Assembly: GCA_963833225.1 (NCBI GenBank)
Contig: CAWHXD010000007.1
Coordinates: 480,001-544,000, forward strand
Source: an uncultured Chloroflexia bacterium
GTDB taxonomy: Bacteria > Chloroflexota > Limnocylindria > Limnocylindrales > CSP1-4
DNA length: 64,000 nucleotides
Reading direction: 5' to 3'
Of the stretch, positions 43,129 through 53,609 are shown piece by piece (the first letter of the stretch is position 1; each line of letters begins with the position of its first letter). Made by a program: the position numbers and the translations under genes. The notes below the pieces were generated by a model. The model saw nothing but the letters and a program-made list of their open reading frames with translations, was not told where the DNA came from and ran no database searches.

Positions 43129-44034
43129 GTGGCCGACGCCGTCTCCGCCAGGGCGATCCTGAGCCGCGTCGAGCGGTTCGCGTCGATCGGCAGCACCAAC
43201 GACAAGGTCCGGGAGTGGCTGATGGACGCCGCGCCCGAGGTCTGCCTCGCCGTCGCCGATGCGCAGACGGCGGGCCGGGGACGATTCGACCGCGTCTGGA
43301 CAGCGCCCGCGGGCGCCGCGCTGCTGCTCTCGCTCGGCTTCCGGCCCACGTGGCTGGCACCCGACCGGACGTGGCGCCTGGCGGCGACCGTCGCGCTCGC
43401 GATGTGCGATGCGGCCGAGGACACGGCTGGGCTGCCGGTGGGCGCGGTCCGTCTCAAGTGGCCGAACGACCTGGTGATCGAGGTCGCCGGACCGAACGCG
43501 CTGCTGACCGGCGCGAACACCCCGGGCGAGGCCGCCGCGCGCCTCGGCGGCCCGTTGGAGCTGCGCAAGCTGGCCGGCCTCCTGGGCGAGACCGATGGCC
43601 TCGGAACGGACAGCCCGCGGGTCGTCGTGGGCATCGGCATCAACGCGGACTGGGAGCGGGTCGACTTCCCGCCCGATCTTGCGCACGCGATGACCAGCCT
43701 GCGCGAAGCGTCGGGCGGCCGCCCGATCGACCGCGAGCTGCTGCTCGAGTCGTTCCTGGACCATCTCGAGGCCCGCCTCGCTGCACTGCGGGCCGGCTTC
43801 TTCGACATCGCTGTCTGGACCTCTCGCCAGGCGACGAACGGCCGGCTGGTGACGCTCGAGGCCGGCGACGGGTCGGCATCGGAACCGCTGGTCGCCATGG
43901 GCGTGGACGCGTCGAGCGGCGCGCTCGTGCTCGAGGACGACTCCGTCAGCGGCGGCGAGCGCCATGTTCACGCCGGCGAGCTGATCCGGGTCCGCCTGGC
44001 GTCATCCGGGCAGGCACCACGGGACGGGGTGTAA
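43129..44034 (+). CDS. birA: Biotin-[acetyl-CoA carboxylase] ligase (no HTH)
   Basis: STND, QTAGRGR, KWPND, RKLAGLL, GIGIN. Confidence 0.93.
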   Translation: MADAVSARAILSRVERFASIGSTNDKVREWLMDAAPEVCLAVADAQTAGRGRFDRVWTAPAGAALLLSLGFRPTWLAPDRTWRLAATVALAMCDAAEDTAGLPVGAVRLKWPNDLVIEVAGPNALLTGANTPGEAAARLGGPLELRKLAGLLGETDGLGTDSPRVVVGIGINADWERVDFPPDLAHAMTSLREASGGRPIDRELLLESFLDHLEARLAALRAGFFDIAVWTSRQATNGRLVTLEAGDGSASEPLVAMGVDASSGALVLEDDSVSGGERHVHAGELIRVRLASSGQAPRDGV

Positions 44035-44054: not shown

Positions 44055-44687
44055 TTGGAAGCCAGTGAGCGTCAGACGGGAACCGTCGTCGTCCTCGATC
44101 GTGATCGTTTCCTCGTCGAGACCGCGCGCCGGGATCCTGCCCAGTTCGACGCCCTGTACCGGAAGTACCTCGCCCAGGTGTACAGCTTCGCCCTCTACGA
44201 GCTCGCGGACCATCACGCCGCCGAGGATGCCACCGAGCGCACGTTCCTCCGTGCGCTGGCGGCGCTTCCCCGGTTTCGCGAGCAGGCGCGCCCCGAGGAC
44301 GGCCCCGAGGCTTCCTCGTTCCGTGTCTGGCTGTTCCGGATCGCCCGCAACGTCGTGGCCAACGAGCGCCGGGCCAGGCGCCGCCGCCCGGCCGAGTCGC
44401 TGGATCTCGCCCTGGGCGCCGGCCTCGCCCTTGCGGACGGCACGGACCTCGAGGCGCAGGCCGTGACCCACGACCAGGCGTCCGAGGCGCTTCGAGCGCT
44501 CCGGGCGCTCCCCGACGACCGGCGCCGCGCCCTCACGCTGCGCTTCGTGGAGGAGATGAGCACCGCCGAGATCGCCGGGGTGCTGGGCCGGTCGGAGGGC
44601 GCCGTGCGAGTCCTGATCCACCGGGCGCTGGGCGCCGTCGCCCGCGAGCTCGGCCACGACCGCGGCTCGCGGGGGTCAGGCTCGTGA
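44055..44687 (+). CDS. ECF sigma-70 factor
   Basis: FDALY, AEDATERTF, FRVWLFRIARN (region 2); LRFVEEMSTAEIAGVLGRSEGAVRVLIHRA (region 4); TTG start inferred. Confidence 0.9.
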   Translation: MEASERQTGTVVVLDRDRFLVETARRDPAQFDALYRKYLAQVYSFALYELADHHAAEDATERTFLRALAALPRFREQARPEDGPEASSFRVWLFRIARNVVANERRARRRRPAESLDLALGAGLALADGTDLEAQAVTHDQASEALRALRALPDDRRRALTLRFVEEMSTAEIAGVLGRSEGAVRVLIHRALGAVARELGHDRGSRGSGS

Positions 44688-45302
44688 GCGCGCTGCGACT
44701 GCCGGACCGCGACGGAGACCAGGTTGATGCCCTGGTGGCGGATCGGTACCTCGACGCGCTTCTCGCCGCCGGCGACCGGCGCGCGCTGGACGCGCCGGCG
44801 GACGCGGCGCTGGATGCGGAGCTCCGAGACACCGCCCGCGTCCTGCGCCGCTCGCTCGTGCGTGTTCACCCCTCGTTCCGGTTCGAGGAGCGACTCGCGA
44901 ATCGCCTCTCGGACCTTGCCGCGGCCCAGGCTCGTGCCGGCTCGGCCGGCGCCGGTCGTGGAGCGACGATCCGGTTCCCGGGCGGGCCCGGGGCGGCGGA
45001 CACCGTCCTCGACGCGGACCCGCTGCTGGCGGCGATCCTTGCCGGCGACCTGGATCCCGACCGACGAGACCGCCATCGACCACGCCGGGCCGATGGGGTC
45101 TGGCCGTCGCCCGCTGCTGGTCGGCGGCGCCGCGATCACGTCGGCGGCGCTCTCGATCGTCGGCGTCGCCATCGTCGCCTGGCGCGCCTCTCGACCGGCA
45201 TCCCGGTCCGCGACGGCGGGCGCCATGGCCCGCGCCGCCCGGACCGCACACGCGCGCCGGGCCGCGGCCCTCGCCGCTGTCCTCAGCGGAGGTCATGCCT
45301 GA
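44684..45302 (+). CDS. Putative single-pass membrane anti-sigma factor; +1 frameshift near 45058
   Basis: Overlaps ECF stop; PSFRFEERL motif typical of anti-sigma N-domains; TM LLVGGAAITSAALSIVGVAIVAWR in the shifted frame; stop overlaps accD ATG. Confidence 0.65.
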
Positions 45303-46154
45303 TGCCCGTCAAGTTCCCGCAGTTCCGGTCCCGCCGGGACGCGATGCCGGACAAGATGTGGACCCGATGCCCCTCCTGCGAGGAGCAGCTGTTCAACAAG
45401 CACCTCGAGAAGGCGCTCAACGTGTGCCCCTCGTGTGGGCATCATTTCCGGCTCTCCGCCCCGGTCCGCCTCGGCCAGCTGCTGGACGAGAGCACGTTCC
45501 AGGAGCGCGATCCGGGGCTGGTCAGCCTTGACCCCCTCGGGTTCACGGACCAGAAGCCGTACCCGGACCGCCTCGCCGCCGCGCAGCTCGCGACCGGCCT
45601 CAAGGACGCGGCGGTCTGGGGATACGGGACGATCGAGGGACAGCGCATCGCGATCCTGGTCATGGACTTCGGCTTCATGGGCGGCTCGATGGGGGCGGTC
45701 GTCGGGGAGAAGGTCGCGCGGGCCGCCGAGGGGGCCCTCGCCGAGCGCGTGCCGCTGGTCATCGTCTCCGCCTCGGGCGGGGCCCGGATGCAGGAAGGGA
45801 CGATGGCGCTGATGCAGCTGGCCAAGACGATGGCGGCCCTGGAGCGGCTCCGCGCCGCCGGTCTGCCGTACGTGTCCGTGATGAGCGACCCGACCACGGG
45901 CGGGGTCTTCGCCTCCTATGCCGTGATGGGCGACGTGAACCTCGCCGAGCCCAACGCCCTGATCGGCTTTGCCGGCGCGCGCGTTGGCGCCGGGACCATC
46001 GGCCAGGAGCTGCCGCCGGGCTTCCAGCGCTCCGAGTTCCTGTTCCGGCACGGCTTCGTGGACCGGATCATCGCCCGCCCCGATCTCCGGGGCGAGCTCG
46101 CCAGGATCCTTCGCTACCTCGCTCCCCAGCCAGGTGGAGGCCGGCCGTGGTTGA
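45302..46154 (+). CDS. accD: Acetyl-CoA carboxylase carboxyltransferase beta; +1 indel near 46125 hides the stop at 46152-46154
   Basis: WTRCPSC...CPSCGHH zinc finger, FMGGSMG, SGGARMQEG, TTGGV, GFAGARV. Confidence 0.95.
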
Positions 46155-47172
46155 CCGTCTCCTGGGCCGCAAGGACAACGCCCCCGAGCCGGTTGCGGTC
46201 CCCGAGCCCGCCACCTCCGCCGAACGCAAGGCCGAGGTCTGGAGCCGGGTCCAGCTGGCGCGCAACCTGCGCCGCCCCCGGATCCTGGATCTGCTCGCGG
46301 TCATGGCGGACGAGTTCGTCGAACTCCACGGGGATCGCTTGTTCGGGGACGACGAGGCGATCGTGGCCGGGTTCGCGATCATCGGCGGCCACCGCGTCGC
46401 GGTCGTCGGCCAGCAGAAGGGCGCCGATACCGAGGAGAACGTCCGGCGCAACTTCGGGATGCCGCACCCGGAGGGCTACCGCAAGGCGATGCGGATCATG
46501 GAGCTCGCCGAGCGATCAGGCCTCCCGGTCGTGACGTTCGTGGACGTGCCAGGCGCACACCCGGGCGCCGAGAGCGAGGAGCGGGGGATTGCCGATGCGA
46601 TCGCCCGGTCCGTGGGTCTGATGACCCGCCTCCGGACCCCGATCGTGACCGTGATCACGGGCGAAGGGGGCTCGGGCGGCGCCCTCGCGATCGCCGTCGG
46701 CGACGTCGTCCTGGCGCTCGAAAACGCGGTGTATGCGGTCATCAGCCCCGAGGGATGCGCGAGCATCCTGTGGCGCACCACCGACGAGGCCGCCTCGGCT
46801 GCCTTCGCCATGCGCATGACCGCGCAGGACCAGCAGGTGCTGGGCGTCGTGGACCAGGTCATCGCGGAACCCGACGATGGGGCGCACACGGACCCCGTCG
46901 AGACCGGCCGGCGCCTCAAGAAGGCCGTGGTGGCCGAGCTGGATCGCCTCACGGCCATCCCCGTCGACGTGCTGCTCGACCAGCGCTATCGTCGATATCG
47001 GGCCCTTGGCCCGTACACCGAGATCGCCGCGCCACCCCAGGTCCCGCCGGCACCGCCCCGCCAGGGCTTTGCCGATCGCCTCCGCGGTCTGATCGAAGCC
47101 GGCCAGCGGGCGATGCCCGCGCCCCTGCCCGTTGGACGCCGGCAGGATCCCCCCGCGCGCGAGGACGTCTAG
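46147..47172 (+). CDS. accA: Acetyl-CoA carboxylase carboxyltransferase alpha
   Basis: ELHGDR, NFGMPHPEGYRKA, GEGGSGGA, VISPEGCASILW; SD ggagg before GTG. Confidence 0.96.
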   Translation: MVDRLLGRKDNAPEPVAVPEPATSAERKAEVWSRVQLARNLRRPRILDLLAVMADEFVELHGDRLFGDDEAIVAGFAIIGGHRVAVVGQQKGADTEENVRRNFGMPHPEGYRKAMRIMELAERSGLPVVTFVDVPGAHPGAESEERGIADAIARSVGLMTRLRTPIVTVITGEGGSGGALAIAVGDVVLALENAVYAVISPEGCASILWRTTDEAASAAFAMRMTAQDQQVLGVVDQVIAEPDDGAHTDPVETGRRLKKAVVAELDRLTAIPVDVLLDQRYRRYRALGPYTEIAAPPQVPPAPPRQGFADRLRGLIEAGQRAMPAPLPVGRRQDPPAREDV

Positions 47173-47175
47173 CTC

Positions 47176-47747
47176 ATGCCCGAACCCCGTCACTCGAGCG
47201 ACCGGACCGCCGCCCAGCGGCGCGCGGATCACGAAGGCCTCGCCCGGCTGTCCGAGACGCTCGTGCCCGCGCTCATCGCCAAGCTCGACGTGTCGGGCCT
47301 CGGTGAGCTGGAGGTCCGCGAGGGCGACTGGAGGATCCGGCTGCGCCGCCCCGCGGGCACCACGCCGGCCCGACGTGAACGGCCTCGAACCGGCGCCCTG
47401 ATGGGCGGCGCTCCTGCCGCCGCCCGCACGCCCGTGGCCGGTGATCCCGTCGAGCCGCGCGATCCACACCGGGTCTCGGCCACCGCGCCGGCCGTCGGCG
47501 TGTTCCGCACCGTCGGCAAGATCGGCGGCCGCGTCCGGTTGCGGGCGACCGGATCGGCGTGGTCGATCTGCTGGGCATTCCCCAGGACGTGGCGGCACCG
47601 GTCGACGGCATCCTCGTGGAGTTCCTGGTCGAGAGCGGGGAGCCCGTCGAGTACGGCGAGGAGGTGGCGGTCGTGGCGGAGCCGGTCGTGGACCGGATCG
47701 GCGGCGACCCCGCTGGCGGCGCGACCACCGCGGACGGGGAGGGCTGA
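47176..47747 (+). CDS. BCCP-like protein lacking the biotinylation lysine (BADC-like); frameshift near 47538
   Basis: BCCP N-terminus (LDVSGLGELEVREGDWRIRLRR), Pro/Ala linker, biotinyl barrel APAVGVF...GDRIGVVDLLGIPQDVAAPVDG...GEPVEYG; DLLG replaces EAMK. Confidence 0.8.
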
Positions 47748-47749
47748 CG

Positions 47750-49122
47750 ATGGTCTCCCGTGTCCTGATCGCCAACCGCGGCGAGATCGCCCTGCGGATC
47801 CTGCGGGCGTGCCGGACCCTTGGCCTCGAGGCCGTGGTCGCCTACTCCGAGGCGGACCGCGCTTCACTGCCCGCGATGATCGCCGACGAGGCGATCTGCA
47901 TCGGGCCGGCTGACGCCCGCCGCTCGTATCTCTCGGCCCCCGCCATCATCTCGGCGGCCCTCGTGACGGGCTGCGACGCGATCCACCCGGGCTACGGGTT
48001 CCTGTCCGAGGACGACGCCTTCGCCGACGCCGTCCGCGCCCACGGGCTGACGTTCATCGGTCCCAGCGCCCCGGTGCTGGAGCGGTTCGCGTCCAAGGAG
48101 GAGACGCGGCGGCTGCTGGCCGCAGCACGGCCTGCCCACGATCCCTGGCTCAGGGCTCCTCGTGGACGAGCAGCAGGCGCTCGACGAGGCCGAGCGGATC
48201 GGCTACCCGGTCCTCCTCAAGCCGTCCGCCGGTGGCGGCGGCAAGGGCATGCGGATGGTCCGCTCGCCCCGCGAGCTGGCGGCGGTCCTCCCGATCTGCC
48301 GCTCCGAGGCCAGGGCAGCCTTCGGTGACGACTCGCTGTACCTCGAGAAGTGGCTCGAGGACAACAGGCACGTCGAGATCCAGGTGGCCGTGGACCGCTT
48401 CGGGCGCGGCGTCCACCTCTGGGAGCGTGACTGCTCGGTCCAGCGGCGTCACCAGAAGATCCTCGAGGAATCGCCCTCGCCGGCGATGACCGCGGCCGGC
48501 CGGGCCGAGCTCGCCGAGCGGGCCATCCGCGCCGTGGTCGCGGCCGGCTACGAGAACGTGGGCACGCTCGAGTTCCTCGTCGATGCCGAGGGCAGCGCCT
48601 TCTTCATCGAGATCAACTGCAGGATCCAGGTGGAGCATCCGGTGACCGAGATGCTGACGGGCATCGACCTCGTGGCGCTCCAGATCCGGATCGCGTCCGG
48701 CGAGCCCCTCGGCCTCACTCAGGCCGACATCCCGCAGCGCGGCCACGCGATCGAGTTCCGGATCAACGCCGAGGACCCGGAACACGACTTCCGGCCCGGC
48801 GCCGGGACCATCGAGCGGTTCAACGCGCCCGGCGGGCCGGGTGTCCGGTTCGACAGCCACGCCTATGCCGGGTACGAGGTCCCGCCCTACTACGACTCGC
48901 TGCTGGGCAAGCTGGTGGTCTGGGGTCCCACCCGGGAGGCCGCGATCGCCCGCGGCCGGGCCGCCCTCAGCGAGCTCGTGACCGACGGCGTGGTGACGAA
49001 CGCCTCGATCCATCGCGCCATCCTCGTCGTCCGAGCCGTTTCTGGAGGGCCGGTTCACCACCAACCTGCTCGACCGGATCGGCAGCGCCGCCTTCCTCGC
49101 GGCCGAGGAGCGCGCGTCGTGA
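47750..49122 (+). CDS. accC: Biotin carboxylase; +1 frameshifts near 48125 and 49025 (probable errors)
   Basis: LIANRGEIA, HPGYGFLSE, GGGGKGM, RDCSVQRRHQK, RIQVEHPVTE, YYDSL. Confidence 0.95.
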
Positions 49123-49204
49123 GTTGCACCCCTGCACGCAACGGCGAGCCTGCCGCGTGCGCGAACCACCACACTGCCAGCTGACCCAGACCTTGGAGCC
49201 CCCC

Positions 49205-49708
49205 GTGACCGATGCCAACCCCACCAGCAACGCCTCGCCGGACGCCACGCCGCCCCTCGCCGCCCCGTTCTCCGTCAGTGATATCCAGGGCCTGATCCCG
49301 CACCGCTGGCCGTTCCTGCTGGTGGACCGGATCGTCGAGTACGAGCCGGAGGAGAAGCGGATCGTTGGCATCAAGGCCGTGACCGCGACCGAGTGGTTCT
49401 TCCAGGGGCACTTCCCGGGCCTGCCAGTCATGCCGGGTGTCATCCAGGTCGAGGCGCTGGCGCAGACGATGGCCGTCTACGTCTCCAGCCAGCCGGGCTT
49501 CGGTGACCGGATCGGGCTGTTTGCCGGGATCGACGAGGTCCGCTTCAAGCGGGTCGTGGTGCCCGGCGACACGCTCCGGCTCGAGATCACGATGGAGAAG
49601 CTGGGCAGCCGCTTTGGCAAGGGCCGGGGCGTGGCTTCGGTGAACGGGGAGGTGGCCTGCGAAGGGCTGCTGTCGTTCGTCATCCCGCCGGCCGGGGTCC
49701 TGCGGTGA
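49205..49708 (+). CDS. fabZ: 3-hydroxyacyl-ACP dehydratase
   Basis: IPHRWPFLLVD, FFQGHFP, MPGVIQVEALAQ. Confidence 0.95.
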   Translation: MTDANPTSNASPDATPPLAAPFSVSDIQGLIPHRWPFLLVDRIVEYEPEEKRIVGIKAVTATEWFFQGHFPGLPVMPGVIQVEALAQTMAVYVSSQPGFGDRIGLFAGIDEVRFKRVVVPGDTLRLEITMEKLGSRFGKGRGVASVNGEVACEGLLSFVIPPAGVLR

Positions 49709-50451
49709 CCCGGATCGCGATCCTGTCCGACGTCCACGGCAACTCGGTTGCCCTGGAGGCCGTGCTCAAGGAGCTCAAGCGCGAGAAGCCGGACTTCGTG
49801 CTCGTCGCCGGCGACCTCGTCCTCAACGGGCCGGACCCCAATGGCACGATCGACGCGCTGCGCGGCCTCGAGGGCGACGGCGGGATCATCGTGTCCGGCA
49901 ATACCGACATCGCGGTCGGGGACTTCGACTACGGGTCGGCGTTTCCGCAGTACCAGGATGGCGTGCCCGACACCGTCACCGCGGCCACCGAGTGGGCGCA
50001 TGACGAGCTGGGTGACGCGCAGCTGGACTGGCTCCGGCGGCTCCCGGCGGAGCGGCGCATCCGGGCCGGTGACGACCAGCTGGTGCTCGTCGTCCACGCG
50101 TCGCCCGGGTCGCAGACGCGTGGCTTCGACCAGACGCTGGAGGCGAACATCATCTTCGAGCGCGCGGCAGCGACCGATGCCCGGGTGATCTGCGTCGGGC
50201 ACACCCACCTGCCCGAGGTGCGCGACCTGGGCTGGAAGGTGATCGTCAACGACGGCTCGGCAGGCTTCGTGTTCGACGGCGACCCGACCGCGTCGTGGGC
50301 GATGGTGACCATCGATGGCACCGAGGTGGCCGCCGAGATCCGGCGCACCGAGTTCGACGTGCTCTCCGTGGCCAACGCGATCAGCGCCCGCGGTCTGCCG
50401 GGTGACGTCTACCGCGCCGCGACGGTGCGCACGGGGAAGCTGGTCCGATGA
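49705..50451 (+). CDS. Calcineurin-like metallophosphoesterase
   Basis: SDVHGN, GDLV, GNTD, VHAS, GHTH, NDGS. Confidence 0.92.
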   Translation: MTRIAILSDVHGNSVALEAVLKELKREKPDFVLVAGDLVLNGPDPNGTIDALRGLEGDGGIIVSGNTDIAVGDFDYGSAFPQYQDGVPDTVTAATEWAHDELGDAQLDWLRRLPAERRIRAGDDQLVLVVHASPGSQTRGFDQTLEANIIFERAAATDARVICVGHTHLPEVRDLGWKVIVNDGSAGFVFDGDPTASWAMVTIDGTEVAAEIRRTEFDVLSVANAISARGLPGDVYRAATVRTGKLVR

Positions 50452-51719
50452 CCTGGCAGTGGCCGGTGCGGCCACCTCGTGTCGTGATCACCGGGATGGG
50501 CGCCGTCACGGCGCTGGGACAGGATGTGGGCTCCACCTGGGACGGGCTCGTCGCGGGCCGGTCGGGTGTCGCCCGGATCACCCAGTTCGACCCGGAGCGC
50601 GTGAGCTCGCGGATCGCGGCGGAGGTCAAGGATTTCGACCCGTCCGCCGTGCTGGACCGCAAGGACATGCGCCGGACCGACCGGTACATCCAGTTCGCGC
50701 TCGTCGCCGCTCGCCAGGCGATGGACCAGGCGGGGTTGCCCGGTCGCCTTGACGAGGCGATGGGCGTCCGGACCGGCGTCATCGTCGGGTCGGGCCTGGG
50801 CGGCGTCCACACCCTGTTCGACAACGTGCTCCTGATGGCCGGGCGCGGACCGGACCGGATCTCGCCGTTCTTCATCCCGATGGGCATCGCCAACGTGGGT
50901 GCCGGGCAGATCGCGATCGCCACCGGCGCCATCGGCCCCAACTTCGCCACCGTGTCGGCGTGCGCGTCGGGCGGCCACGCCCTGGGCGAGGCCTGGGAGA
51001 CCATCCGCCGCGGCGATGCGGACATGATGCTCGCGGGCGGCGTCGAAGCCGGCATCCACGAGGCCACGGTCGGCGGGTTCGCGTCGATGAAGGCGCTGTC
51101 GACGCGCAACGACGACCCTGAGGCCGCGTCCCGGCCCTTCGACAGGGGCCGTGACGGCTTCGTCATCGGCGAGGGCGGCGGGGTGCTGATCCTCGAGACC
51201 CTCGAGCACGCCGAGGCCCGGCATGCGGTTCCGCTCGCGGAGCTCGTGGGCTACGGGGCAACGGCGGACGCGTCGCACATCACGCTGCCGGCGCCCGGGG
51301 GGATCGGCGCGGTCCGGGCCGCCCGGCGCGCCCTCGAGAAGGCCGGCATGGACCCGGCCGAGATCGTGCACGTCAACGCCCATGCCACGTCCACCCCCGA
51401 GGGCGACAAGGCGGAGCTGCAGGCGATCCGCACGATCTTCGGGGATCACGCTCCGGCGGTCTCCGTGGCGGCCCACAAGTCCATGATCGGCCACACGCTT
51501 GGCGCGGCCGGCGCGATCGAAGCGATCGCCACGATCTGCGCGATGCGCGAGGGGTGCATCCCGCCCACGATCAACCTCGTCGACCCCGACGATCTCGCGC
51601 AAGGCCTGGACCTCACCCCCAACACCGCCGTCCGCCGGCCGGTTGCGGCCGCGATGTCCAACTCGTTCGGGTTTGGCGGGCAGAACACGGCGCTCGTCTT
51701 CCGGAGGTGGGACGGATGA
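50448..51719 (+). CDS. fabF: 3-oxoacyl-ACP synthase II
   Basis: VVITGMG, SACASG, SRPFD, NAHATST, KSMIGHTLGAAG, NSFGFGG. Confidence 0.96.
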   Translation: MTWQWPVRPPRVVITGMGAVTALGQDVGSTWDGLVAGRSGVARITQFDPERVSSRIAAEVKDFDPSAVLDRKDMRRTDRYIQFALVAARQAMDQAGLPGRLDEAMGVRTGVIVGSGLGGVHTLFDNVLLMAGRGPDRISPFFIPMGIANVGAGQIAIATGAIGPNFATVSACASGGHALGEAWETIRRGDADMMLAGGVEAGIHEATVGGFASMKALSTRNDDPEAASRPFDRGRDGFVIGEGGGVLILETLEHAEARHAVPLAELVGYGATADASHITLPAPGGIGAVRAARRALEKAGMDPAEIVHVNAHATSTPEGDKAELQAIRTIFGDHAPAVSVAAHKSMIGHTLGAAGAIEAIATICAMREGCIPPTINLVDPDDLAQGLDLTPNTAVRRPVAAAMSNSFGFGGQNTALVFRRWDG

Positions 51720-52414
51720 CCGGTGACGAGTCGCAGCCCGAGCCCGCAGAGGAGGTGTCGATGACCGAGCCCGGCCTGGTTGAGCCCATCGCGGTGGGCC
51801 CCGGCGAGCCCGAGGCGTCCGCTGGCAACGGCGCAGCGGGCGATGCATCCCCGGTGCCGGCAGCCACGGGACCCGATGACGAGCCCATCGCGGGCGGCTC
51901 CGTGACCGACGCGCCCACCGACCCGTCGGACACCTCGCTGCTCGCCCTCGTGGACCAGCTGACCGTCCTGCTCGAGCGGAGCGACCTCGGGGAGCTCGAG
52001 GTGGCCGCGGGCGACACGACCATCATCCTGCGGTCGCCGGCCGCGATCGAGCGCCCGGCCGCGGCGGCCTCATCGCCCGCGGTCGAACCGACGCCCGCCG
52101 CCGATGGTGGGTCCTCGTCCTCGCCCGCCGCGCAACCCCCGGCCCAGGTCCCCGCCCCGGTGGTGGCGCCGGCCAAGCCGTCGGTCAAGGCGCCCCTCAC
52201 GGGCATCTTCTACGGCGCGCCGTCGCCGGGAGCCACCGCCTACGTGGCCGTTGGCGATCACGTTGCCGTCGGCCAGATCATCGGCCTGATCGAGGCGATG
52301 AAGCTGTTCAATGAGATCAAGAGCGACCTCGCCGGCCGCGTCGTGCGCGTCTGCGCCGACAATGGGGCGCTGGTCAAGGCCAGGCAACCGCTGATCGAGG
52401 TCGAGCTCGCATGA
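51716..52414 (+). CDS. accB: Biotin carboxyl carrier protein with acidic N-terminal extension
   Basis: APLTGIFYGAPSPG thumb; intact IEAMKLFNEI motif (Lys codon 52301-52303). Confidence 0.93.
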   Translation: MTGDESQPEPAEEVSMTEPGLVEPIAVGPGEPEASAGNGAAGDASPVPAATGPDDEPIAGGSVTDAPTDPSDTSLLALVDQLTVLLERSDLGELEVAAGDTTIILRSPAAIERPAAAASSPAVEPTPAADGGSSSSPAAQPPAQVPAPVVAPAKPSVKAPLTGIFYGAPSPGATAYVAVGDHVAVGQIIGLIEAMKLFNEIKSDLAGRVVRVCADNGALVKARQPLIEVELA

Positions 52415-53609
52415 CGTCCCCTGCGACGCGCTCAGTCCGCCTCACCGGCTGGGGTCGCTACGCCCCCGCCCAGGTGCTCACCAACGCCGACCTGGAGCGC
52501 ATGGTCGACACCTCCGACGAGTGGATCGTCAGCCGCACCGGGATCCGCGAGCGGCGGGTCGCGGCCGCCGACGAGACGACCGCGTCGATGGCGGCCGTGG
52601 CTGGGCTGCGGGCGATCCACACCGCCGGCCTCGCGCCCGAGGACATCGACCTGATCATCCTCGCCACGCTCACGCCCGACTACTGGATGCCGTCCACGGC
52701 GGCGCTGGTCAAGGAGGCGATCGGCAACTACGAAGGCGGCTGCCTTCGACGTCGCGGCCGCCTGCTCCGGCTTCGTGTATGCCTACGCGACCGCGTCCGC
52801 CTACATCGCGTCCGGGATGGCCCAGCAACGCGCTCGTCATCGGGGCGGAGCTGCTGACCCGGTTCCTGGACTACTCGGACCGGAGCACCTGCATCCTGTT
52901 CGGGGACGGCGCGGGGGCCGTGGTGCTCAGCGCCAGCGACGAGCCAACGGCGCCGATCGGCATCGAGATGACGACCGAGCCCCAGGGCGCGTACATGATC
53001 TGGCTCCCGGCGGGTGGCTCCAAGAGCCCGCCGTCGGCCGAGACGATCGCCCGCGGCGAGCACAAGATCCGGATGGAAGGCCGCGAGACCTATCGCTTCG
53101 CCACCCGGACCCTCGCCTCCACCGCCCTCGCCGCCGTCGCCAAGGCGGGCCTGACCCAGGGCGACATCGACCTGATCATCCCGCACCAGGCCAACATCCG
53201 GATCATCGAGGCGGTGGCCAAGGGCCTGGACCTGTCGATGGACCGGATCTACGTCAACCTCGACCGCTACGGCAACACCTCGGCCGCGTCGGTGCCCATC
53301 GCGCTCGCCGAGGCGGTGAATGAGGGCCGCGTCCAGGCCGGTGACAAGATCGTGTTCGTCGCCTTTGGCGCCGGCTTCACGTCCGGCGCGGTGGCCATGG
53401 AGTGGACCGCCGACCCGGCCCGCGGCCGTGACGCCGACGACGCCGTCCGGGCGGCCGATGTCCGGATCCGGCTGCCGCAGGACTGGGATTCCGTGGATCC
53501 CATCCCGCCCGCGCTGGCCGAGATCCTCGCCCGGCCACTGCCCGGGCACATGGACCTGTCCGACGTCGCGCCCGGCGAGCCCGAGCACGCCCACCAGCCC
53601 ACACACTGA
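52411..53609 (+). CDS. fabH: 3-oxoacyl-ACP synthase III; +1 frameshifts near 52729 and 52822
   Basis: DTSDEWIVSRTGIRERR, AACSGF (middle frame), LFGDGAGA, PHQAN, GNTSAAS, FGAG. Confidence 0.94.

Follow-up and report, generated by a model that had tools for sequence, protein, structure and literature searches.

The stretch of DNA analysed here (the window) comprises 64,000 nucleotides from an uncultured soil/freshwater Chloroflexota bacterium of the class named Limnocylindria in record titles (GenBank assembly GCA_963833225.1, contig CAWHXD010000007.1, positions 480,001 to 544,000 of the forward strand). Between accA and accC, which encode the carboxyltransferase alpha subunit and the biotin carboxylase (BC) of acetyl-CoA carboxylase (ACC), it carries a gene, called X below, whose product is, judged from its sequence, a conserved paralog of BCCP (biotin carboxyl carrier protein) that is unable to be biotinylated. 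The true AccB of the window, encoded elsewhere in the same cluster, has in turn lost the V-E-Y-G motif that X keeps, and this reciprocal loss is the new point of the present analysis. By analogy with the plant BADC proteins, X would be a fifth, non-catalytic subunit of the multi-subunit ACC with an anchoring or assembly role, a reading of its function that we hold with slightly more belief than doubt.

Sequence and fold of X

The features of X were located as follows.
47176..47747, + strand: gene X, a Lys-less, thumb-less BCCP paralog (open reading frames, translations and TIGR00531 matches to both pieces)
47230..47352, + strand: N-terminal helix and two-strand segment, the BCCP assembly motif, L-G-E-L-E-V ... 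R-I-R-L-R-R (ortholog model, E. coli BCCP alignment)
47470..47684, + strand: biotinyl-domain fold without the thumb (model, Foldseek, alignment)
47541..47542, + strand: two surplus letters that break the frame (near-identical contigs of two runs from two studies; orthologs)
47565..47576, + strand: hairpin tip D-L-L-G replacing E-A-M-K (sequence, alignments)
47574..47576, + strand: Gly codon ggc at the position of the biotinyl Lys (sequence, alignments)
47646..47657, + strand: V-E-Y-G motif, part of the predicted BC contact (complex model; A1, the alignment and profile of 93 X-family members)

In the window X is read in two pieces. By translation, frame 1 (47176-47538) runs from the N-terminal segment through the linker into the first part of the C-domain, and frame 3 continues with G-D-R-I-G-V-V-D-L-L-G-I-P-Q-D-V ... 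G-E-P-V-E-Y-G up to the stop at 47745-47747. The pieces matched the BCCP profile TIGR00531 at positions 8-90 and 111-154. Since their Pfam and NCBIfam matches were weak, an intact ortholog of 183 amino acids (P0002) was taken as the query instead.

The break lies where five nucleotides separate an Arg codon from G-D-R-I-G, a place at which the orthologs have one codon. Two near-identical contigs, record 17 of run X3 (265 nt, 47474-47740, 4 other letters different) and record 27 of run X4 (436 nt, 47299-47736, 15 other letters different), have two letters fewer at 47541. Because these contigs come from two other studies, the insertion at 47541-47542 is most likely an assembly error, and correcting it, a step proposed in the initial annotation of this DNA, turns X into a single open frame of 189 codons. 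The insertion is upstream of the hairpin tip and, as had been argued there, is not the cause of the changed motif. The genome assembly consists of 20 contigs with a completeness of 86%; taken with the contigs that lack the extra letters, this makes the frame breaks of the window look like assembly indels and not decay.

The initial annotation had described a full BCCP architecture in which Gly takes the place of the biotin Lys, the whole EAMK motif is changed, the thumb is absent, and GEPVEYG and the N-terminal assembly segment are kept. All of this was borne out. In a BLASTP alignment with the window AccB, P0002 showed 30% identity over the whole architecture; it lacked eight residues precisely at the thumb, and its D-L-L-G was paired with E-A-M-K. 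The ggc codon, G-E-P-V-E-Y-G and the N-terminal segment can all be read directly in X. An intact ortholog aligned to positions 8-154 of 156 of TIGR00531 with 55 bits, against a cut-off of 115.2, and five X proteins of the class scored 32-55 bits. In a scan of X proteins against the curated NCBIfam models none passed its cut-off, TIGR00531 being the best match.

The AlphaFold model of the ortholog, built with A1, had a mean predicted local distance difference test (pLDDT) value of 83.4, with a helix at residues 12-40 and strands at 44-49 and 52-57. The block means were 82-90 for the N-terminal motif and 97-98 for the C-domain; between the N-terminal segment and the biotinyl domain lies a Pro/Ala-rich linker, modelled with low confidence. 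The top Foldseek matches were biotinyl domains, namely 5gua (root mean square deviation, rmsd, 1.4 over 69 columns), 1bdo (rmsd 1.6 over 76 columns), 4hr7_G and Arabidopsis BCCP1 (9a87). Among 35 matches in the PDB the best solved sequence relative was full-length E. coli BCCP (E 1.3e-19; chain 4hr7_B). The alignment starts at the N-terminal motif (residues 27 onwards), extends to the C-terminus and is gapped where the thumb would be.

Conservation, synteny and selection

A search with P0002 returned 2054 proteins at E <= 1e-3. The names among the matches listed were 'acetyl-CoA carboxylase biotin carboxyl carrier protein', 'biotin/lipoyl-containing protein' and hypothetical protein, and the few organism names among them were Candidatus Limnocylindrales or Chloroflexi. 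The tip read DLLG in 117 and DMLG in 3 of 121 close homologs, so that the D-x-x-G pattern singled out in the initial annotation occurred in 120 of them; the remaining one had EVLG. An all-against-all library search with X gave 2223 matches, 237 of them at 1e-10 or better. Among the top 150 representatives at 50% identity, [DEN]-x-L-G was present in 140, eight were fragments without the region and two were otherwise odd, and a Lys at the tip was found in none of the 150. Within A1, the tetrad was x-x-L-G in 93/93 rows, E155 and G157 were invariant, and V154 and Y156 were conserved at 90% or more. The orthologs of X therefore do not retain the M-K of the carrier, an outcome that would have counted against the initial proposal.

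X DNA was matched in 24/24 genomes of the genus, and the loci that were fetched contained intact orthologs. The A1 profile was matched in all 151 sampled genomes of the class, which cover five families: 44/44 in f1, 6/6 in f2 (genomes of 1.0-1.4 Mb), 49/49 in f3, 50/50 in f4 and 1/1 in f5. Seven of these genomes are unpublished (G102, G122, G126, G131, G139, G145, G156) and enter this count only, no locus being taken from them; without the seven the tally is 144/144. As the profile scores of X in f3 and f5 overlap those of AccB, six loci of these two families were read directly. In each, the gene behind accA encodes a protein about 135 residues long whose tip is Q-S-L-G.

The gene order around X is also kept. 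X follows accA in 12/12 class loci that cover the region, from all five families; the other 2 of the 14 loci cover fabF-accB alone. The accA-X-accC arrangement, another point on which the initial annotation had placed weight, held in 22 Chloroflexota loci from named records: accC follows X in 22/22 and accA precedes it in 21/22, the remaining locus being cut at a contig end. By tblastn, birA was found upstream (of accD) in 16 of these 22 loci and in most class loci. X and an EAMK-type AccB were seen together in the window and in L111, the single fetched class locus that spans both. Two variations of the arrangement were observed. In f3 and some f4 genomes (seen among loci L099-L104, L109, L110 and L112), fabD, for malonyl-CoA:ACP transacylase, sometimes with more DNA, stands between X and accC. 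A single frame of 659 residues covers both accD and accA in a genome of f2 that is roughly 1 Mb in size (L107:1289-3265), which suggests a fused carboxyltransferase.

Ratios of nonsynonymous to synonymous substitution (dN/dS) were computed by NG86 for 12 genus-level loci (66 pairs, one duplicate locus dropped). The median for X was 0.137 in the N-terminal segment, the lowest in the gene, 0.36 in the C-domain and 0.51 in the linker, compared with 0.19 for accA and 0.11-0.14 for accC. Purifying selection acts on X, and most strongly on its N-terminal segment, which evolves about as slowly as accC.

These results bear on a sceptical explanation, that X is a dead or dying accB duplicate or an artefact of a poor assembly. 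X is frameshifted in the window, and accC and fabH are broken there too, as such an explanation would have it. Against it stand the two independent near-identical contigs without the extra letters, the intact orthologs across the class, a new and strictly conserved motif in place of E-A-M-K, and dN/dS below 1. A strain-specific decaying duplicate is contradicted in particular by the presence of X throughout the genus and the class. This explanation is extremely improbable and was rejected.

Reciprocal motif loss in the true AccB

The window AccB keeps the Lys and the thumb, and its V-E-Y-G is replaced by L-V-K-A-R-Q: it ends in ...N-G-A-L-V-K-A-R-Q-P-L..., where canonical BCCPs have G-Q-x-V-E-Y-G-Q-P-L. 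Among the homologs of the window AccB that were listed, EAMK was present in 120/120 and V-E-[YF]-[GD] in 0/120, whereas 239 of 254 X-family proteins keep V-E-[YF]-[GD].

The same pattern was found in genomes from outside the class. Of ten examined that carry a Lys-less copy (G327, G395, G440, G365, G247, G269, G245, G261, G221, G285), nine also encode an AccB, linked to fabF, that shows E-[AT]-M-K and the thumb but no V-E-Y-G. In the tenth, G285 (76% complete), the Lys-less copy was found and an AccB was not. G365 has an additional accB-accC pair in which V-E-Y-G is kept. In five genomes where no Lys-less copy was found (G438, G431, G434, G195, G403), AccB keeps the motif in 5/5, as V-E-Y-G in four and I-E-F-D in one. 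The TIGR00531 cut-off was passed in 0/11 X-bearing genomes and in 5/5 of the others. These outside-class genomes were picked by the presence or absence of X and are related by kinship. A separate observation in G261 is an open frame of 391 residues with two tandem biotinyl domains, each with E-A-M-K-M (L142:1751-2923).

Predicted docking on biotin carboxylase

A complex of AccC (alignment A2, 34 rows) and X (A1) was modelled in three runs. The median score was 0.81 and that of the best control 0.00; of 157 solved complexes 116 reach the pass mark, as do 2 of 215 mismatched pairs, counts that hold roughly here because our own alignments were used. Agreement between the runs was at least 48% of contacts, with a pLDDT of 65 or more for the partner. 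The predicted interface comprises residues 34, 49-53, 59, 64-65, 67-69, 71-73 and 98 of AccC and residues 103-106, 128-129, 131 and 153-158 of X, that is P-A-V-G, the L-L-G tip and A-V-E-Y-G-E. Conservation of 90% or more was seen in 7 of the 13 interface residues of X and in 9 of the 57 other C-domain residues (Fisher p 0.007).

In the solved E. coli complex 4HR7, BCCP contacts BC at helix 64-73, according to an excerpt of bioRxiv 10.64898/2025.12.30.697075. Excerpts of PMC11160672 report that in active ACC tubes of E. coli BCCP is parked at a non-catalytic BC site, and that the first 30 residues of E. coli BCCP form an alpha/beta/beta motif modelled to multimerise. The model would place X where the carrier parks on BC.

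A carrier-like protein without the Lys that is predicted to dock on BC could also be a negative regulator, a dummy carrier that competes with AccB for BC and lowers ACC activity. This was the first model proposed for BADC (Salie 2016, Keereetaweep 2018, as described in excerpts of PMC11926652). We regard it as unlikely for X. Only 3 nt separate the accA stop from the X start and 2 nt the X stop from the accC start, a packing so tight that X should be made together with the catalytic subunits and not conditionally. X is kept even in the genomes of 1.0-1.4 Mb. Furthermore, X docks in the model through its V-E-Y-G face, which AccB has lost, so that AccB would not be a competitor for this site.

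Lys-less relatives outside the class and trees

A phylum profile search covered 301 genomes (one of them, G313, is unpublished and enters the tally only). Matches of A1 outside the class reached at most 88 bits. Twenty of the best were fetched, of which 15 were Lys-less and 5 had the canonical EAMK. The 15 Lys-less proteins span eight families (f22, f25, f27, f29, f33, f34, f38, f41) and have the tips DVLG, EVLG, ETLG, EALG, EVLR, ESLN, EALN, EVLN, EVMM and EALA. Because the former Lys position is taken by Arg (E-V-L-R) or Met (E-V-M-M) in some of them (L118 and L121 of f41, L126 of f33), the constraint on the tip seems, from these sequences, to be 'not Lys' together with a hydrophobic third residue (Leu, or Met in E-V-M-M), and not Gly itself. 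Several of the outside-class Lys-less proteins still have a loop of thumb length, so the Lys seems to have been lost before the thumb.

The neighbourhood of the gene in these families differs from that in the class. In a Pfam scan of eight outside-class loci, efp was immediately upstream in 6/8 and xseA immediately downstream in 6/8, with pepP, aroQ or topA nearby. Six loci (L114, L115, L123, L126, L127, L131) show the order (topA/aroQ)-pepP-efp-[Lys-less gene]-xseA(-xseB), which resembles the ancestral efp-accB position with accC moved away. The efp-accB(-accC) neighbourhood is old and widespread, for example in Bacillus and cyanobacteria; we know of no functional link behind it. Seen in this light, it is the Lys-less gene that has inherited the place of the ancestral accB, as efp-X in other families and as X-accC in the class, and this fits the real accB being the displaced copy.

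The same neighbourhood could instead point to a role outside ACC catalysis, with X acting as a BirA-titrating mimic of apo-BCCP, as a transcription regulator through its N-terminal segment (a role that has been proposed for E. coli AccB), or as a partner of the efp and xseA products. Besides the six of eight loci on either side, it may be said for such a role that birA heads the X cluster of the window and that excerpts of PMC11160672 discuss a regulatory effect of the AccB N-terminus on expression. The efp neighbourhood is, however, more simply the ancestral accB position, the hairpin recognised by BirA is the most changed part of X, and the best-conserved surface of X coincides with the predicted BC contact. 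We consider a role of this kind improbable.

A careful IQ-TREE analysis was made of 78 proteins over 178 columns, with the genus-level loci thinned and one third of the canonical BCCPs of other phyla kept. All 27 EAMK proteins and all 51 Lys-less proteins fell on opposite sides of one branch with support 98/93. When the tip tetrad and a few flanking columns were dropped, the tree that keeps the Lys-less proteins together was better than the free quick tree (approximately unbiased test, p-AU 0.80). In a second tree ten Lys-bearing BCCPs were added, of which nine were AccBs linked to fabF and one was the accC-linked copy of G365. Here the 13 fabF-linked AccBs without V-E-Y-G formed one group (SH-aLRT 86) inside the Lys-bearing side. 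As the proteins are short and some branches long, the trees are consistent with one old duplication and fall short of proof.

A proposed division of labour and its weighing

The explanation we favour starts from an old duplication of accB that would have led to a division of labour between X and AccB. X would have stayed at the ancestral accB position and retained, with P-A-V-G, the hairpin tip and V-E-Y-G, the surface for docking on the N-domain helix of BC, the non-catalytic 'parking' site of E. coli BCCP. It would probably join AccB through the shared N-terminal motif and in this way anchor or assemble the BC-BCCP sub-complex. The fabF-linked AccB, which kept the Lys and the thumb and lost V-E-Y-G, would have become a pure biotin shuttle. 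The suggestion in the initial annotation of a bacterial structural or regulatory ACC subunit is supported by the absence of M-K from the orthologs, by the conserved accA-X-accC order and by purifying selection, and the predicted docking is in keeping with it.

Several points weigh against this explanation. The Lys-less homologs outside the class lie between efp and xseA and not beside ACC genes, so their context does not imply an ACC role in those Chloroflexota. The C-domain of X is relaxed in dN/dS compared with accC. The pass of the complex model may be owed to its remembering the BC-BCCP complex solved for E. coli; as that similar complex is already known (4HR7), the pass indicates likeness rather than binding, and it is from the model alone that V-E-Y-G is taken as a docking face. 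The association between the loss of Lys in one protein and of V-E-Y-G in the other may be one old event counted many times, given that the genomes are kin and were selected on X. Free trees did not recover a single group for all X proteins of the class, and the Q-S-L-G form of f3 and f5 sat on a long branch; one clade for all of them was not rejected (p-AU 0.83), and synteny is likewise compatible with one origin. Lastly, public sequencing runs contained at most 0.20 of the sampled words of the stretch, and none of them was an RNA run.

A broader form of the proposed division of labour would hold that across much of Chloroflexota the ACC carrier split long ago into an 'anchor', which kept the docking face and the oligomerisation motif and lost the Lys and later the thumb, and a 'swinging arm', which kept the Lys and the thumb and lost the docking face. 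ACC would then be a five-subunit enzyme there, an independent counterpart of the plant BCCP/BADC pair. This extension is tentative, and we are more inclined to doubt it than to accept it.

The fatty-acid cluster around X

The cluster runs in the order birA, an extracytoplasmic function (ECF) sigma factor with a putative anti-sigma factor, accD, accA, X, accC, fabZ, a phosphoesterase gene, fabF, accB, fabH and fabG. This confirms the gene order of the initial annotation, in which X fills the accB slot before accC and the real accB is displaced between fabF and fabH. The features located besides X are the following.
43129..44034, + strand: birA, encoding the biotin-protein ligase, first gene of the cluster (translation of the open reading frame)
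about 45302..46150, + strand: accD, carboxyltransferase beta (zinc-ribbon motif in the translation; tblastn synteny in related loci)
46147..47172, + strand: accA, carboxyltransferase alpha (Pfam ACCA, E 6e-111)
47750..49120, + strand: accC, biotin carboxylase (open reading frames), broken by at least 2 frame changes, which were noted over 47750-49184
50448..51719: fabF
51716..52414, + strand: the true AccB, between fabF and fabH (TIGR00531, E 9e-31, 107 bits)
52292..52303, + strand: E-A-M-K tip of AccB (sequence)
52411..53609: fabH, with two frame changes around 52740-52830

The frame of accC breaks near 48122 and near 49000, and its C-terminus is odd compared with the orthologs; a near-identical contig of run X1 has one letter fewer at 48122. 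With the breaks in accC and fabH, the assembly seems to hold many small indels. Between birA and accD (window 44100-45300) the translations were labelled by eye as an ECF-type sigma factor and a putative anti-sigma factor, the frame of the latter continuing into accD without a stop. A metallophosphoesterase-like gene, read from its translation, lies between fabZ and fabF (window 49705-50451) and overlaps both neighbours by a few bases.

Comparison with known systems

With the bacterial AccB/BCCP (E. coli AccB; TIGR00531; 1BDO, 4HR7), X shares the N-terminal helix and two strands, the Pro/Ala linker, the biotinyl fold, the slot before accC and V-E-[YF]-[GD]. It differs in having the tip D-[VLM]-L-G instead of E-A-M-K, in the deletion of the 8-residue thumb and in its low TIGR00531 scores (32-55 bits against 115.2). 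Thumb-less biotinyl domains are known, for example in the BCCP of Pyrococcus horikoshii (5GUA, 2D5D), to which the C-domain of X comes closest in structure (rmsd 1.2-1.4 over 67-69 columns); there, however, the biotinyl Lys is present and the protein is a real carrier, whereas X has no such Lys. The epsilon subunits of actinobacteria (AccE/PccE) are small non-catalytic proteins that aid acyl-CoA carboxylases in assembling or working, and they are not known to have a BCCP fold or a sequence relation to X. X would resemble them as a small non-catalytic carboxylase subunit; excerpts of PMC11926652 allude to bacterial subunits of this type.

A full-text literature search found no description of a Lys-less bacterial BCCP, and the excerpted text of a paper on Chloroflexus ACC (PMC11077971) describes none. 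Excerpts of PMC11926652 call BADC 'unique to the plant htACCase'. Annotation would benefit as well: going by their sequences, thousands of proteins of this family would be unable to carry biotin and yet bear the name 'acetyl-CoA carboxylase biotin carboxyl carrier protein'.

The closest parallel is the BADC of plants and algae (Arabidopsis BADC1-3). It belongs to a heteromeric ACC, as X would, and both proteins resemble BCCP, have no biotinylation motif and stand beside a true BCCP. In excerpts BADC is said to be without the AMKL motif (PMC11926652) or, in bioRxiv 10.64898/2025.12.30.697075, without the biotinylated loop, and it has been proposed to bind BC and BCCP as a 'glue' or as an inhibitor (excerpts of PMC11926652, PMC11889953 and bioRxiv 10.64898/2025.12.30.697075). 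No BADC chain was among the 35 PDB sequence matches of X, and the likeness is drawn from these published descriptions. Unlike BADC, X is bacterial, is encoded in an operon between accA and accC and lacks the thumb, and its partner AccB lacks V-E-Y-G. By analogy, X may work as in the 'glue' model. Non-biotinylated look-alikes of BCCP have been regarded as a speciality of plants and algae, and the choice between glue and inhibitor is still debated. If X is such a subunit, its operon would offer a simple system for reconstitution, with five genes and neither transit peptides nor isoforms. The parking of BCCP on BC, as seen in E. coli crystals and filaments, could then be separated from catalysis, since the partner AccB lacks the complementary motif, and X and AccB together would be a natural experiment in which the parking and the carrying function of BCCP have been split.

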